Shown here: positions 4,495 through 62,044 of the stretch, in pieces
Numbering within the stretch: the stretch's first letter is position 1
How the letters are laid out: every line of letters begins with the position of its first letter
Assembly: GCA_964016885.1 (NCBI GenBank)
Contig: OZ024740.1
Location: forward strand, 60,016,001 to 60,080,000
Direction of reading: 5' to 3'
DNA length: 64,000 nt
From: Eledone cirrhosa
Lineage: Eukaryota
Made by a program: the position numbers and the translations under genes
The notes under the pieces: generated by a model
What the model saw: only the letters and a program-made list of their open reading frames with translations
Told to the model about the DNA's origin: nothing
Database searches by the model: none

Positions 4495-4527
<33 letters not shown>

Positions 4528-4531
<4 letters not shown>

Positions 4532-5296
4532 GGAAAAAATGAAACGATATTTCATTTCCCACTCTTAGTACGGCTGTTACTTAAATATAAGTATGTACAC
4601 GTGCATACATATATGTATACAGACGTATAATAACTGTACTAGTTAACAAGCCTGAAACTAGTACAGCGTTCCTTTGTCAGTGTTGAACAAACGAGCAACG
4701 GTGGTTGCTAGACACTACGGCTTAATACGGGATGTTTGTTTACAAACACACCGAGCATTATAATAAATGTTCGGTGAATCCATACGTGCATATATATATG
4801 TGTGCATGTATGTATATATATATACATACTACTGTACGTCTGTATACATATATGTATGCACGTGTACATACTTATATTTAAGTAACAGTCGTACTAAGAG
4901 TGGGAAATGAAATATCGTTTCATTTTTTCCGTTTATCGTTTTCGGTGCACCCGGCCGATTAACCCACTCAATATGCAAATTGGGCTACTCAGCCGTTAAT
5001 ATGCATAAGGTAAGTATATACGTTCAACAATCTGGCAGGAAGGTATACGTTGCTGACGATAGTTAACAAGCCTGAAACTAGTACAGCGTTCCTTTGTCAG
5101 TGTTGAACAAACGAGCAACGGTGGTTGCTAGACACTACGGCTTAATACGGGATGTTTGTTTACAAACACACCGAGCATTATAATAAATGTTCGGTGAATC
5201 CATACGTGCATATATATATATGTGTGCATGTATGTATATATATATACATACTACTGTACGTCTGTATACATATATGTATGCACGTGTACATACTTA
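4528..5296 (+). mobile_element. Family A hammerhead-bearing element: inverted segment plus 1.6 tandem units (period 420 bp), flanked by (TA)n
   Basis: 4528-4627 is the reverse complement of 4836-4935; 4640-4876 repeats at 5060-5296. Confidence 0.8.
5047..5089 (+). ncRNA. Minimal type I hammerhead ribozyme (family A)
   Basis: ACGTTG CTGACGA tagttaacaagcct GAAA CTAG TA CAGCGT; 6-bp stem I; palindromic CTAG stem III; GUA site; stem II is weak in this copy. Confidence 0.7.
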
Positions 5297-5317
5297 TATA
5301 TATATATATATATATAT

Positions 5318-6806: not shown

Positions 6807-7775
6807 AACGCAGGAGTAAATGTTACATAGTGTTATTAGCTTCTCGCTTGTTGTTTACGACGTTTCGGACATAAGCCCTTCTTCAGGAGAGTGAGGGGGA
6901 AGAATGGGGGGGGGGGGGGGCAGTTAGCGGGAAAAATATGAACAGACGGGAAAAATAGAAATAAAAATGAATATAAAACATTAAGTGAAAATAAAATAGA
7001 TACAGAATTAAACGGAATATATATTTTTAAAAAACACAGAATTAAAAAACAACAGAATATTAAAAATGAGAGGGGTGTACAGGGGTGGTGGAAGCATTTC
7101 TGAATGAGGGGGAGGGGGGGATTTGGACAATTTAGTTGCAGTGATTAGTTTACCTCTTTGCACTCTAAAATGATCAGAAAACTTCGATTTGCGATAAACA
7201 AAACATCTACATAAATTGTAGCATATATCCAAATAGATGTGAGTTTTGATAGTTTGGGGAGAAAAATATAATTATTTGGGGTGGAGGGCATGCCCCCTTC
7301 CCCAGTTCCACCGCCGCTGTTTATATATATAATTTAAAAAAATAATTATGCTCTGTGCCCTTTCCTAAGGGGTTAATATATCGAGCTTCTTTGCATTTGG
7401 TAAGAAACTTGTATTACACCTAATTTATTCATCTCCTATATATATATATATTTATATTTATATGTTTCCTAGGTCCGATTTGAAGAAAGTCGATTGACTG
7501 TCGATATATATATATATATGTACATATATATATACACACATTCATTTATCATGTCTATTGGTAAGCTTTGTTACTCTGAAGTTTCACCTGCACACTCACA
7601 GGATCAACGGTTTTGTTTAGTGAGTACGCAGATGAGACTTCAGTCTAACAAGGCTTAGCCATAATAAAGGAACATCTAAACTTATCTTGACTCTCACTCT
7701 CTCTCTCTTTCAAATATATATATATTTATATAATAATAAAAAGGACGATTTGTATGTCTTCATTACGTTTATTGA

Positions 7776-15743: not shown

Positions 15744-15904
15744 CAAATATTAAGCTATGTTTTATATTGCCTCGTCCAACGAACGTATGAAGACGTTTCT
15801 TTCGTATTCGCCTCATTCGGGAAACCTCTGGTAATGAGGTAATTATATTGTATTGTCATTTTTTATACATTAAATTTTGCTCTGGTACTTACATAAAACT
15901 TCAA

Positions 15905-15907
15905 TAC

Positions 15908-15946
<39 letters not shown>

Positions 15947-16065
15947 CACCTATATATACACATACGCACACATATATATATATATATATACATATATATA
16001 CATATACATATATATACACACATATACATATATAAATATATATATATATACACATATACATATAC

Positions 16066-16136
<71 letters not shown>

Positions 16137-16248
16137 TATATATATATACACACATTTGTGTGCGTATATGTGTGCATATACATGCATATACATATATATA
16201 TATATATACACACATATACGCACATACACACACATATACATACATATA

Positions 16249-16312
<64 letters not shown>

Positions 16313-16515
16313 CAAAATATATACATATATACATATATGTACATATACACATACACATACATAGACATATATATATACACACATATACACACATATATAT
16401 ATAGCATATATACACAAATACATACATATATATATATATACACAAATACACACATATATACATATATATATATATATACACAAATACACACATATATATA
16501 TATATATATATATTT

Positions 16516-16562
<47 letters not shown>

Positions 16563-16623
16563 TATATATACACACATATATACATACACACACACACACA
16601 TATATATACACACATATATACAT

Positions 16624-16688
<65 letters not shown>
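15905..16688. repeat. Compound (TA)n/(CA)n/(CATA)n microsatellite
   Basis: Directly visible in the sequence. Confidence 0.95.
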
Positions 16689-16689
<1 letters not shown>

Positions 16690-16741
16690 GCATAAAGAAA
16701 GTATATACTTTCAGACGTTCAATCATCTGGCAGGAAGGTAT

Positions 16742-16784
16742 ACGGTGCTGACGATAGCTAATAAGCTTGAAACTTGTACATCGT
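16742..16784 (+). ncRNA. Minimal hammerhead (family A, copy 1 of pair)
   Basis: ACGGTG CTGACGA tAGCTaataAGCTt GAAA CTTG TA CATCGT; predicted cut after 16778. Confidence 0.75.
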
Positions 16785-17175
16785 TCCTTTGTCAGTGTTG
16801 AACGAAAGGGCAACCATGGTTGCTAAACACTGTACGGCTTAATTCGGGATGTTTGTTTACAAACACACCGAGCATTATAATAAATGTTCGGTGAATCCAT
16901 ACGTACATATATATATGTGTGCATGTATGTATATATATATATATACATACTACTGTACGTCTGTATACATATATGTATGTACGTATACATACTTATATTT
17001 AAGTAACAGCCTTACTAAGAGTGAGAAATGAAATTTCGTTTCATTTTTTCCATTTATCGTTTTCGGTGGGCCCGGCCGATTAACTCACTCGATATGCAAA
17101 TTAGGCTGGTGAGCCGTTAATATGCACAAGGAAAGTATATACTTTCAGACGTTCAATATCCTGGCAGGAAGGTAT

Positions 17176-17218
17176 ACGGTGCTGACGATAGCTTATAAGC
17201 TTGAAACTAGTACATCGT
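17176..17218 (+). ncRNA. Minimal hammerhead (family A, copy 2 of pair)
   Basis: ACGGTG CTGACGA tAGCTtataAGCTt GAAA CTAG TA CATCGT; predicted cut after 17212. Confidence 0.8.
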
Positions 17219-17542
17219 TCGTTTGTCAGTGTTGAACAAATGGGCAACGATGATTGTTAAACACTGTACGGCTTAATTCGGAAATTTATTATACTTATTG
17301 ACCAACCAATCAAATTACTTCTCTAAAAACCTGGCGTTTCGAGCCACTTTTTTCCGTATAAAACAAGTAACATTCAACCAGATGTGAGAAAAACCACAGA
17401 CCCTCCATCTCAACTCTACTTTTGAAAAGCAGAAGAACAGTGAAACCGGTAAAGGAACCAAATAAATATATATATATATTTTTTTAAAAGAGACTCCATT
17501 TGCATTTTCGATTTCATCTTTTTTTCTATATATATATATATA

Positions 17543-17870
17543 TGGAGGCACATGACTTAGTGGTTAGACCTTGCAATCGAAAGGTTGTGAGTTCAATTCT
17601 CAGACTGGGTGATGTGTTGTTTCCTTGAGCAAGACACTTTATTTCACATTGCTCCAGTTTACTCAGCTGTAGAAGTGAGATGATAGGGATTGGGGTCCAC
17701 ATCATTTCACTACAAAGTGGTCGTGGAGGTGCCACGGCAAAAAAACACTAATCACTCACTGTAAATAAGGTTGGTGTTAGGAAGGGCATCGAGCTGTAGA
17801 ATTCAAGCCAGAATTAGTTGCCGTCCCACCCTTGCAAGCAGGGAAAAGTGGACGTAAAATGAAATGAAAA
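17543..17870 (+). mobile_element. tRNA-SINE family 2
   Basis: A-box tgacttagtggt, B-box gagttcaattc, ccttgagcaagacacttta core, ggttggtgttaggaagggcatc segment and (TGAAA)n tail; inverted relatives at ~37000 and ~51320-51470. Confidence 0.75.
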
Positions 17871-22690: not shown

Positions 22691-23205
22691 TACACGCAAT
22701 GTATAATGGTATACACTCACACAGAACCTCACCTACATACAAGGTATAAAAATACACACTTACACACAGATTGTTCATAGTGAGAGCACACAGTGTTCAA
22801 TCTGCTGCCAAGTATTCGGACTAGCTTTCTTGTTTGAGATAAACTCAATATCTTGGCATGCTACTTCCTAATACGACAACTCTTCCAGTAACAGAGATCC
22901 TGTAGATTAATTCATGGGCTTTGCTATTTCCCTTCTGAATAAAAGCTATTAAAAACTATAATATTACAAAAGCTGCATCCTAAAGGGTATAATTGCACTT
23001 TAGGACCTTATCAGTTTCTAATATTTTAAATGCGACCCACAAAGTAACTGTAACATAACTGAGATGGCCTCCGTGTTCCACACACAAACAACATATCACA
23101 CAACAATATATATATATATGTAAAAGTAAACAGAAATAACAACACGATCGGTACAGTATATGGAAGGGATATATTAGGTTAACGCTTGATATAACAGGAA
23201 GAGGG

Positions 23206-23241
23206 TCTTAACGTTTCGAACGCTAGTCTTTCATCAGAAGA
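23206..23241 (-). ncRNA. Ultra-minimal hammerhead-like motif
   Basis: Reverse complement: TCTT CTGATGA aaGACtagcGTTc GAAA CG TT AAGA; loopless AACGTT stem III could fold only as a dimer. Confidence 0.5.
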
Positions 23242-23348
23242 AAGAATGAGAAATAAGATAGATTGTGGGGACGGGCGGGTTGGAATTGGAAAAAATGTCT
23301 TTAGATAAAAATAACAGGTCCATTCATGTTGACATCTCTTGCAAACAC

Positions 23349-23980
<632 letters not shown>

Positions 23981-24229
23981 TTGGAAAAAATGAAACGAAA
24001 TTTCATTTCCCACTCTTAGTACGGCTGTTACTTAAATATAAGTATATATATATATATTATATATAGAATATTTAAGTATCGTGAGAGAGAAGAAGGAGTT
24101 TTAAGGGATAAGCGATACATATAGTTAATTGCCAAAAGCTGGTGCATTTGTGCTCAATACTTGTGCCTACAGGGTTAAAAATCGGAAGCGTTAATATTTA
24201 GCGGGCGAGAAAATAAGCAGAGCGGTTAC

Positions 24230-28562: not shown

Positions 28563-29032
<470 letters not shown>

Positions 29033-29089
29033 CATTTAAGTAAGTGCCGTACTAAGAGTGAGAAATGAAATTTCGTTTCATTCTATTCC

Positions 29090-29157
<68 letters not shown>

Positions 29158-43823: not shown

Positions 43824-43884
43824 AGAACATAGGAAGGTAATATCGTAGGGGTAGAGCACTCAATCCATGAGACGAGTTTGGTAG

Positions 43885-44028
43885 AAGTAGTAACACAACA
43901 GTTAGTTGACCATACCGAGAACAATTGTTTCACCTTATGCAGATCTTCAGCTCGTACTGGTCGAGCTGAAGATCTGCATAAGGTGAAACAATTGTTCTCG
44001 GTATGGTCAACTAACTGTTGTGTTACTA

Positions 44029-44031
<3 letters not shown>
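43885..44031. repeat. Perfect foldback (70-bp arms, 7-nt loop) with a family E hammerhead on each strand
   Basis: Minus strand 43908-43962: GACCAgtaCGAG CTGAAGA tctgcataaggt GAAA CAATTG TT CTCGgtaTGGTC; plus-strand core at 43966. Confidence 0.85.
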
Positions 44032-44075
<44 letters not shown>

Positions 44076-50191: not shown

Positions 50192-51883
50192 GAAAGAGAG
50201 AGAGAGAGAGAGAGTGTGTGTGTGTGTGTGTGATGGGAGCAGAAATAGACAGGTAGACAAAAGTATCAGCTTACTTAAATGCTCCTTCACTACAACATGG
50301 TCCCTCTCTGTAAATATTAAAGAGGGACGATTATGGGTTTTGTAAATATTTGATATATTAATGCCCATGACTTGAGAAGGCCTACCAGAAAAAAAAAACA
50401 CTTTATATGGATGTAACATTTACCACCTTTATAGGGTGTAATATTTATCACATTATATGGTTAACAGCATCCACTGAAACTAAGTATTGTGAGACATCGA
50501 TGAAACGTCTACACATTTGTAGAAATAGCCGTCAAATCTGCCCCAAATCAAACTCTACTGTCTTAAAACAAAACAGGTGACATATGATAATGTAATCCTA
50601 GATGTACTATTACTGAAAACAAGACAATGAGACGTTCATGATTGGAATATCTTTGATCATAGATTTGAACTACCATAGTTGATCATAGATTAGAGCTACC
50701 ATGGCTGTAAATAACAACCACCACTAGCTCATTTACTAATAGAGCTTTCCAACTGAATGGCAACATCCTTTGAGTTTGTTCTTTTCCGAAATCAATGTAG
50801 TTTATGAGCAGGTGAACATTTTGGTTCTAGTTGGTCGGTTAGAGCATGTATGACAGCTTCGGATTGAGGGGTAAAACTAGTGATAGTTTACAGCCTTACA
50901 AATGTGTAACAGTCAAAATTCTCCGACAATAATCAATGTCAATATTAAAAGACGCTTGGAATGCCACCAATGTACGTTGATATTTATTGGAGGGGGATTA
51001 ATAGATTAAGATTTTTTGATTTTGCTGAGACATTATAAAATGTCCGACTGATATTAACAAGTTTCGTGGTAGATTACATTTCATGTTGTCAAACGTCACA
51101 CAGAATTATGCCGAATTATGCCAACCTAAGTTATATGTTTACAATACGTCAGTTTGGAATGCGTTTTAGCAAATCTAAAAACTACCCCTTAAAATTATGT
51201 AGCATTTGTAAATCTTTGTACTGTTGTTGTTACAGCTCACACCTATGCAGGTTTAGCTGGCCTCCTCCAAGGTATATCTCGTTGGAGTTGTCTTGGGTGA
51301 TTTAATGATAGAGACCCCAGTCCTATCATCTCATTTCTACAGTTAAATAAACTGGAGCAACGTGAAATAAAGTGTCTGCTCAAGGAAACAACACATCACC
51401 CGGTCCGAGAATTGAACTCAGAACCTTTCGATTGCAAGTCCAATGCTCTAACCACTAAGCCATGCACCTTTGTACTGGTTTATAATGTCTTCAGTATTAG
51501 ACTATTGCCTCCACAACCAAGAAATATTTCACAGAAACCTAGCTTTTGAAACCTAAAGAATTTTATTTTATTCAAATTCAGAATTTAACCAACTTAATCA
51601 AGTGTACAGGAACCAAATCACGGACTTAACGTGACAGAAGTTATTAAGTGTTGAGCGGGTTTAAAAAGACAAAGAAACGCAACAATATTTTTGTCGCACA
51701 CTGCCTTCACATTTCACTGAAGTTAGCTTTAGCTCTACTTATTACAGCACGTGAAATAAGTAGTATGGTAATATATTTGGTTAATTCATCATCACATATC
51801 GACACCGTGATATACGCCTCGTGACCCATTTCACTATTTCTGTTCTAAGTTTTCTTGATTTATTAGACATTGAAAATAAATAA

Positions 51884-55499: not shown

Positions 55500-55573
55500 T
55501 TCGTTTCTGAATTTCTGAAAAATGGCGTAGGATAGAAGAAAGGAAAGGCACAGAAACGAAGAAAGAAATCCCC

Positions 55574-55618
55574 AGTCACTGAAGAGGTCACAGAGTGTGT
55601 GACGAAAGAACTATGACT
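55574..55618 (+). ncRNA. Minimal hammerhead with GAAC stem III
   Basis: AGTCA CTGAAGA gGTCACAgagtgTGTGAC GAAA GAAC TA TGACT; predicted cut after 55613; followed immediately by (TA)n. Confidence 0.75.
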
Positions 55619-55885
55619 ATATATATATAAACAACTATCTGGTTGTGGAACCAACCAACCAACCAGAAATTTATAAATTTGTAAATTTATAAATATATAT
55701 TAAATTAAATTGAAGTGAAACAACTGGTGCGTGTGTTTCTTATTGGCAACATGACCCTCCCAAAGTATAACAATATACATATGTATCTATATATATATAT
55801 GTGTGTAGCAACAAGGGCGGTGCCCCAGCATGGCCTCAGCCGGATGGCTGGAACAGGTAAAAGAGTAAAAGAGTATATAGAAATG

Positions 55886-56698: not shown

Positions 56699-56905
56699 AT
56701 ATGTGTGGGTGGGTGTGCGTATCCGTGTGTATATGCAGATATATATATATATATATATAAGTTGAAAAAAAAAAAAAAATGAAAATGAAATTTCATTTCT
56801 CACTCTTAGTATGGCACTGTTCAGTTTGTTGACAAACGAACAAAGCGGCGTTATAATAAGCGTCCGCTAAACTGATGCGTGCATATATGTATGTGTACCT
56901 GTATG

Positions 56906-56999
<94 letters not shown>

Positions 57000-57072
57000 T
57001 GCTACTGTACGTCTGTATACATATATGTATGTACGTATACATACATACTTACATTTATATATATATATATAT

Positions 57073-61624: not shown

Positions 61625-62044
61625 TCATCCCTTGAATTGCAAGAATGTTTTGCAAATTTTGAAGGTGCCAGCTATCGCAGCCATTTGTAGACTATGAATT
61701 AGGGAGCTGCGCTTTTTGTTCACAAATCCAAGTTCAGTCATACTTTGGTCCAAGCGGGTTGGTATATAACCCGTAGCTCCAATAATGATGGGTATGAAGC
61801 TAAAGGTGTATCTTGGATACTGGATTTGTAAACTCCTCATCAATGGTCCGTAGATGTCCTCCTTCTCCTGTATTTTTCTGACAACGTTTACATCAAGTGG
61901 GCAGTTGATCTCCACAAAAGAACACGTTTTCAATGTGTGGTCCCAAAGAACAATATCAGGCCGGTTGTGCTTTAATTTGGTGACAGTTTTTATTTTCAGG
62001 TTCCACCAGTATTCCTTAGTGCCATCTGTCTCAATATATTCCTC
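61625..62044 (-). mobile_element. R4/Dong-like retrotransposon 3' fragment with open RLE reading frame
   Basis: Uninterrupted EYWWNLKIKT..KLKHNRPDIVLWD..KTCSFVEINCPLD.NV..K..EKEDIY...FIPIIIGATG...ICKTFL; the stop codon runs directly into (CATA)n. Confidence 0.88.

Follow-up and report, generated by a model that had tools for sequence, protein, structure and literature searches.

A 434-nt hammerhead-bearing unit, probably a non-LTR retrozyme mobilised by Penelope-like elements, and its junction with a Neptune-type 3′ end

A 434-nt unit carrying a type I hammerhead, found in tandem in a 64-kb window (the whole stretch of DNA analysed here), is very probably a non-LTR retrozyme, the tandem RNA of which is predicted to self-cleave and circularise and which is likely mobilised by Penelope-like elements (PLEs). 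The hammerhead motif, its covariation, the copy number, the lack of an open reading frame (ORF), the insertion architecture and a template haplotype common to units and arms are all read directly from the genome, a 3.0-Gb animal assembly, probably of an octopus, over which the copy number was counted. We infer that PLEs mobilise the unit, that copying starts internally at two sites and that it rolls round a circle. Tandem transcripts would self-cleave at GUA sites, likely as paired hammerheads, and the cleaved monomer would be ligated into a circle; a PLE-type RT-endonuclease, likely of the Neptune type, would then copy this circle into DNA at TA microsatellites. Reverse transcription would begin internally at two sites ~55 nt apart, giving one arm from each, and would roll round the circle, giving arms above one unit. 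The preliminary description had proposed a candidate retrozyme producing a 434-nt monomer; this label fits the family, given its tandem units, type I hammerhead, lack of an ORF, structured predicted circle and structure kept in a sister family, whereas the PLE footprint, the Neptune fusion and the decay of the copy had been overlooked. Metazoan non-LTR retrozymes are described as tandem repeats lacking an ORF or LTR, the 150-450 bp units of which carry a type I hammerhead (PMC7229834), and the units of the present family likewise fall in this range, lie in tandem and each have a type I hammerhead.

The locus (16690-17527, forward strand) is bounded on its left by a (TA)n-type microsatellite at 15904-16689 (TRF: period 2, 393 copies), which forms the left target flank; the window is rich in TA microsatellites and also contains tRNA-derived repeats. 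Unit comparison identified one full 434-nt retrozyme unit without an ORF (16690-17123, +), with 1.5-1.7% private substitutions when the TA-rich middle is left out, followed by a partial second unit corresponding to unit positions 1-158 (17124-17281, +), which is 92% identical to the first and carries 8 private changes. The retrozyme content is thus 1.36 units with two hammerheads, and the tandem pair previously proposed holds as two hammerheads 434 nt apart, whereas its second repeat extends for only 158 nt and then gives way to an unrelated PLE 3′ end. The predicted 434-nt monomer or circle corresponds to 16779-17212 (+; circular fold prediction). Within the unit, a long TA-rich hairpin (16890-16990, +), recovered as helix 7 by fold and alignment, is retained in the sister family, and arm mapping placed a ~55-nt ‘tail’, the interval between the two fixed 3′ insertion ends of the family, at 16999-17053 (+); the bounds of this tail may represent internal RT start sites. 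The locus (16690-17283) is one among tens of thousands of decayed copies and a poorer candidate for activity than the young arrays of the genome. A tRNA-derived SINE copy lies directly to the right of the insertion (17544-17700), and a second, scored as tRNA by Rfam, is found at 51405-51462 (-).

Both hammerheads show the CUGANGA / GAAA / UH core with helices I-III in type I order. Hammerhead 1 (16732-16788, +; descriptor and fold) has a distal stem I of AGGA/TCCT and a 6-bp stem I formed by ACGGTG (16742-16747) and CATCGT (16779-16784), a core of CUGACGA (16748-16754) followed by stem II and then GAAA, a stem II with a U.U pair at its base, 3 bp of AGC/GCT and a 6-nt loop, and a stem III, A-C-[TT]-G-T, of 2 bp and a 2-nt loop, with the GUA ending at 16778, after which cleavage is predicted. 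Hammerhead 2 (17166-17222, +; descriptor and fold) repeats this layout shifted by 434 nt, its GUA and predicted cleavage site ending at 17212. The layout and a strict descriptor requiring a 6-bp stem I therefore confirm the two same-strand hammerheads with GUA sites after 16778 and 17212 that were first noticed at this locus, and the 2-nt stem III loop is present as reported. The strict descriptor returned 2 sites in the 64-kb window, namely both locus hammerheads, and 0 in 200 third-order Markov sequences of 64 kb. The stem III palindrome is broken in hammerhead 1, which reads ACUUGU where the family has ACUAGU, leaving one U.U in the paired stem III; it is intact in hammerhead 2, in which a C-to-G change at 17221 creates a mismatch in distal stem I. 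In the window, Rfam returned no hammerhead at gathering scores and, at E up to 1, 24 matches, all to low-complexity miRNA or RUF21 models and none to a hammerhead; the miRNA matches at 16893-16998 were set aside as low-complexity and under the cut-offs. As Rfam gave no match, the motif is called a hammerhead from the descriptor, from its covariation and from the published consensus.

A palindromic stem III allows hammerheads to pair (PMC4209133) and axolotl retrozyme dimers cleave better than monomers (PMC7229834); dimer-dependent cleavage may reasonably be inferred here from the palindromic stem III and the axolotl precedent. In ViennaRNA, the double-hammerhead fold of the locus dimer lay 17.6 kcal/mol above the minimum free energy (MFE), compared with 9.4 kcal/mol for each of two dimers from cleaner arrays and 18.5 kcal/mol for a third, and had a probability of 0 in all four, these energies omitting core and tertiary terms and being useful for ranking only. 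The presence of two tandem hammerheads was used as a criterion of activity by Li, Clavereau and Pollet (2026; bioRxiv 10.64898/2026.07.22.740005). Activity of the locus copy is not to be assumed since only 1 of 9 predicted Xenopus dimers was reported to cleave in vitro (bioRxiv 2026.07.22.740005).

The exact 33-nt hammerhead core matched the genome 9,643 times (reversed control, 0) and was present in 12 of 42 copies among loci picked by their 3′ end only, from which rate roughly 20,000-60,000 hammerhead copies can be extrapolated. Among 169 copies surveyed from 96 loci, the core was intact in 145, the stem III palindrome was CTAG in 154 and CTTG in 6, and position 10.1-11.1 was U.U in 166. The variable stem I pair was U.G in 71 copies, G.U in 60, A-U in 20 and other in 18, with stem I pairing kept in three subfamily states; the difference in stem I between the locus (ACGGTG/CATCGT) and the copy at 5047 (ACGTTG/CAGCGT), already pointed out as preserving the pairing, is real and marks subfamilies. 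Private divergence has a median of 2.8% (250 copies), and the units within a few arrays hardly differ from one another. The unit contains no ORF of at least 110 aa, barring microsatellite frames entering from the flank, and no PLE protein match.

Other copies of the family occur within the window. The insertion at 4526-5300 (+, by similarity) belongs to the U.G subfamily and comprises an inverted arm (4526-4627) and ~1.55 direct units, the element at 4640-5300 carrying one complete hammerhead (core at 5053) and one that is 5′-truncated. The fragments earlier placed at ~23983, 28805 and 56781 were recovered by similarity as a 3′-end fragment at 23982-24064 (-), two short back-to-back arms with a short and a long end at 28813-29095, and older-subfamily fragments in both orientations at 56774-57047; none of the three holds a hammerhead. 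The older subfamily is also seen at L071:6824-8001, as a 511-nt unit with an expanded TA hairpin and ~80% identity over the hammerhead half.

Further hammerhead-bearing repeats in the window belong to other families. A perfect fold-back at 43880-44035 is made of two arms of another such repeat (cores at +43966 and -43950) with a palindromic stem III and a U.U at the base of stem II, and a related copy is present at -33081. A short hammerhead-bearing repeat lies in a TA tract at 55500-55620 (core at 55579) and occurs at many loci, often as inverted pairs, and minimal PLE-type cores of the form CUGANGA...GAAACGU at 23180-23270 (-) and 6830-6920 (-) represent two further repeat families. At 61625-62044 (-), there is a 139-aa frame that we take to resemble the restriction-like endonuclease domain of a non-LTR retrotransposon.

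A sister family is colinear with the 434-nt unit and 70% identical to it (293/420 aligned); its own unit measures 467 nt (467-468 nt), and 6,113 exact cores of it occur in the genome. Folded as a circle, the 434-nt monomer has a predicted MFE of -141.6 kcal/mol (z -6.8 against 40 dinucleotide shuffles), and in all five monomers the circular fold was predicted to be far more stable than the shuffles (z -5.8 to -7.8). When 6 + 6 monomers were aligned, the structure itself being derived from this alignment, 21 of 87 predicted pairs were changed on both sides between the families, compared with 1-4 in slid controls, helix I contributing 3 of its 6 pairs and helix II 3 of its 4; the signal comes largely from one split between two families and hence from few independent events. 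The octamer ATGCAAAT (17094-17101, +), identified in the family alignment as common to the sister family, is a possible promoter element, on the assumption of a link to the octamer promoter of newt satellite-2, for which a literature search retrieved no paper. It is changed in one young sister sub-lineage, and a role as a required promoter is weakened in that a young sister haplotype with three A-to-G changes inside it reached 7 loci.

The insertion footprint was established by mapping 192 arms in 104 loci, drawn from three similarity searches and 20 stretches chosen from a listing of pattern matches, minus 7 loci that represented the own locus or duplicates (L097 and L098 may still be duplicates); 5 arms at locus edges were set aside, leaving 187. 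Fixed 3′ ends were found in 147 of these, 72 at the short site and 75 at the long site ~55 nt further on, and 99 of the 147 run straight into TA. The 5′ ends are scattered and show no pile-up at the cleavage site (7 vs 6.5 expected), and 88 of the 187 arms are longer than one unit, with a maximum of 4.6. Back-to-back inverted pairs numbered 65 in 63 loci; where both ends were canonical (37 pairs), 34 combined a long with a short end, 3 were short + short and none was long + long. Copies of the same locus had the subfamily in common in 72 of 73 pairs, and rare variants were shared within a locus in 71/1334 comparisons vs 486/182,779 between loci, a 20-fold excess; both arms therefore derive from one template haplotype. 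The locus at 16690-17527 has no inverted arm and its 3′ end is non-canonical.

The family insertions thus display 5′ truncation, partial tandems, an inverted copy, a one-sided tail and an AT-rich target. PLE insertions have been described as partially tandem, with one copy inverted and only one of the ends tailed (bioRxiv 2021.04.23.441226), and the PLE protein of an anole cuts and extends both strands at AT-rich DNA, starting at two internal RNA sites that bound the tail (PMC11167929). The family footprint matches both the former pattern and the two start sites of the latter. In the sister family, the insertion L206/L207 (G000:C1:30831844-30840564) contains 6 + 12 full units with 0 substitutions and both long and short ends, and these 18 identical units in two arms fit rolling-circle copying. 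The young sister haplotype to which it belongs occurs 69 times at 7 loci, in arms of up to 17 units; a very young two-armed sister insertion at G000:C18:30950487-30961702 holds 17 + 8 matches of the same haplotype. At L204/L205 (G000:C1:5738326-5752444), a sister arm of ~29-31 units (14 kb) accompanies a one-unit inverted arm, and variants common to subsets of its units suggest later expansion at the DNA level.

The genome is rich in potential helpers, with 10,597 GIY-YIG candidates and ORFs combining RT and GIY-YIG. The GIY-YIG loci inspected were mostly Neptune-type RT-endonuclease elements with a cysteine linker, the clade label following the description in bioRxiv 2021.04.23.441226. Hammerheads were also present within the 3′ repeats of several inspected PLEs; some of these show a U3.A8 core, a variant described in PMC4209133, or else a U.U base pair. 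A U3.A8-core hammerhead-like motif and the palindrome ACCGGU also occur 3′ of the ORF in autonomous Neptune-type families (L034, L055, L079 (family A), L061/L062 (family C) and L080). The unit was not found as the terminal repeat of an autonomous PLE in 50 GIY-YIG loci from the 10,597 candidates, no autonomous partner was seen in the 20 pattern-listing loci, including one with a same-strand hammerhead pair 4.6 kb apart, and in 104 loci no ORF with RT plus GIY-YIG lay between copies of the unit in the manner of pLTRs. Sequence upstream of the unit that was seen in contigs, and considered as a candidate partner, turned out to flank one locus only. By class, the helper is probably a PLE, likely of the Neptune type.

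It is barely credible that the family is ordinary satellite DNA in which a hammerhead-like motif arose by chance: Rfam gave no hammerhead match and some arrays seem to expand at the DNA level, whereas the descriptor found nothing in the control sequences, the core is intact in most copies surveyed, and the insertions are dispersed with fixed 3′ ends. It is also quite improbable that the unit is the pseudo-LTR of an as yet unseen autonomous PLE and that the copies are its truncated ends. Such an origin would account for the PLE footprint, only 50 of the 10,597 GIY-YIG candidates were inspected, and Xenopus retrozymes are related to pLTRs (bioRxiv 10.64898/2026.07.22.740005); however, what lies 5′ of the unit end in the 104 loci is more of the unit, an arm in inverted orientation or flanking DNA unrelated to it, 88 of the 187 arms traverse the whole unit without an ORF, the hammerheads 4.6 kb apart are separate insertions, and the sampled PLE 3′ regions have only microsatellite-like stretches in common with the unit. 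More weight can be given to a same-parasite alternative, itself unlikely, in which the PLE template is an uncleaved linear multimer transcribed from existing arrays, with hammerhead cleavage rare or late and no circle needed. In vitro, the anole PLE used mainly unprocessed RNA as its template and did not require hammerhead cleavage (PMC11167929), the lack of a 5′-end pile-up at the cleavage site fits this template and a circle equally well, and long homogeneous donor arrays exist, as the young sister haplotype shows. Against it, a haplotype with several changes must arise in one unit and yet fills all units of both arms, which copying from a monomer circle explains directly; the hammerhead helices are kept by compensatory changes between the two families; and circles are documented for coral, mussel and axolotl retrozymes. 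A retrozyme copied by a PLE from a circular monomer remains the preferred reading.

The right part of the locus bears on the identity of the helper. Past unit position 158, the sequence becomes the 3′ repeat of Neptune family C (junction 17281/17282), an autonomous PLE with RT plus GIY-YIG, the fused part being assigned by similarity to the 5′-truncated 3′ end (pLTR) of this family (17282-17527, +). The Neptune stretch of ~245 nt passes its own hammerhead-like motif (17418-17455, +; U3.A8 core), in which stem II is damaged in this copy, and ends in TA at ~17527. With 1 match in the genome, this junction is unique and does not represent a propagated chimeric family. The fusion may have arisen by template switching within one insertion, which would name Neptune family C as a helper; this is a serious candidate, though somewhat less likely than not, the alternative being a later truncated Neptune insertion that deleted the 3′ part of the retrozyme. 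A single TA tract brackets the retrozyme and Neptune parts, their divergence is alike (1.5-1.7% in the unit and 2.0% in the Neptune part), and L109 pairs a retrozyme arm with the short end and an arm ending in a Neptune family C tail. Yet direct sense fusions were seen at 3 of 40 non-canonical ends and involve three different PLE families, many other ends adjoin unrelated sequence, the 3′-end similarity to Neptune family C is weak (p 0.026 in 10 tests), and a later insertion with deletion yields the same orientation. Similarity between the retrozyme 3′ ends and five PLE ends was not significant after the 10 tests. Two-armed insertions in which a short-end arm is joined by an arm continuing into a PLE were observed at L109:1250-2334 (Neptune C), L082:600-2046 (Neptune B) and L121:699-3066 (Penelope-type). 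A fuller scenario, tentative and as a whole rather unlikely, holds that a TA microsatellite is cut by a pair of PLE proteins, for which a single small circular RNA then serves as template at the two DNA ends simultaneously, one per internal site, rolling up to 17 times, that the locus fusion marks Neptune family C as a helper, and that an excess of A-to-G among variants derived from the template records RNA editing of the circle prior to copying. In the 434-nt family, A-to-G made up 6/26, 9/36 and 16/61 of locus-fixed variants, depending on the threshold, vs ~9% of singletons (p 0.03, 0.006 and 0.00007), a weak hint of such an excess, but the A-to-G to T-to-C ratios are only 6:1, 9:5 and 16:7. 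Compared with its nearest relative, the young sister haplotype (L206 and six further loci) has one inserted A and, clustered in the octamer at a site predicted to lie in a helix, three A-to-G changes; this cluster may be a relic of A-to-I editing in the template RNA.

Animal retrozymes are already known, and PLEs have been proposed as their mobilisers from co-occurrence and pLTR homology. To this, the present family adds the long-plus-short end rule, the single template for both arms and the identical many-unit arms of its young sister. Its footprints, of more worth than the single locus, connect retrozymes with the use of two start sites that one PLE has shown in vitro, and the family supplies a short, ORF-free candidate substrate for circle-templated copying. 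If true, the two-armed rolling reading would show directly, from genomic sequence, that PLEs use the circles of animal retrozymes as substrates, and would give a defined 430-nt template on which to test how PLE inversions and tails form. A literature search for published cephalopod hammerheads or retrozymes found none, giving a Naiad PLE paper and an unrelated LTR paper, although the supplements of PMC7229834 and of the bioRxiv preprints may list one.

The family resembles the metazoan retrozymes of Cervera and de la Pena (2020; PMC7229834) in its tandem units, type I hammerhead, GC content below 50%, lack of an ORF or LTR and highly paired predicted circle. It also has, together, the short palindromic helix III and the U.U at the base of helix II that axolotl retrozymes show in two separate families, the U.U at 10.1-11.1 being found in axolotl HHR_Amex2. 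Unlike the retrozymes described in the available text of PMC7229834, none of which is from a cephalopod, its insertions mostly contain 0.3-2.6 units and show inverted arms, two fixed 3′ ends and TA targets. As with the vertebrate retrozymes of bioRxiv 10.64898/2026.07.22.740005, it co-occurs with PLEs and the locus has two tandem hammerheads, the second unit being partial; their link to PLEs, as given in that preprint, is pLTR homology, whereas here it is the insertion footprint, no homologous pLTR having been found. With the EN+ PLEs Neptune and Poseidon (Craig et al. 2021; Cervera 2014, PMC4209133; Frangieh et al. 2024, PMC11167929), the family shares partial tandems, 5′ truncation, an inverted 5′ copy, a one-sided tail and AT-rich targets, as well as a hammerhead upstream of the two 3′ ends. 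It differs from these elements, as they are described in those sources, in that the 434-nt unit has no RT-endonuclease ORF, in its canonical hammerhead, with a 6-bp helix I and a 6-nt loop 2 where theirs is minimal, and in a tail of ~55 nt as compared with 30-40.
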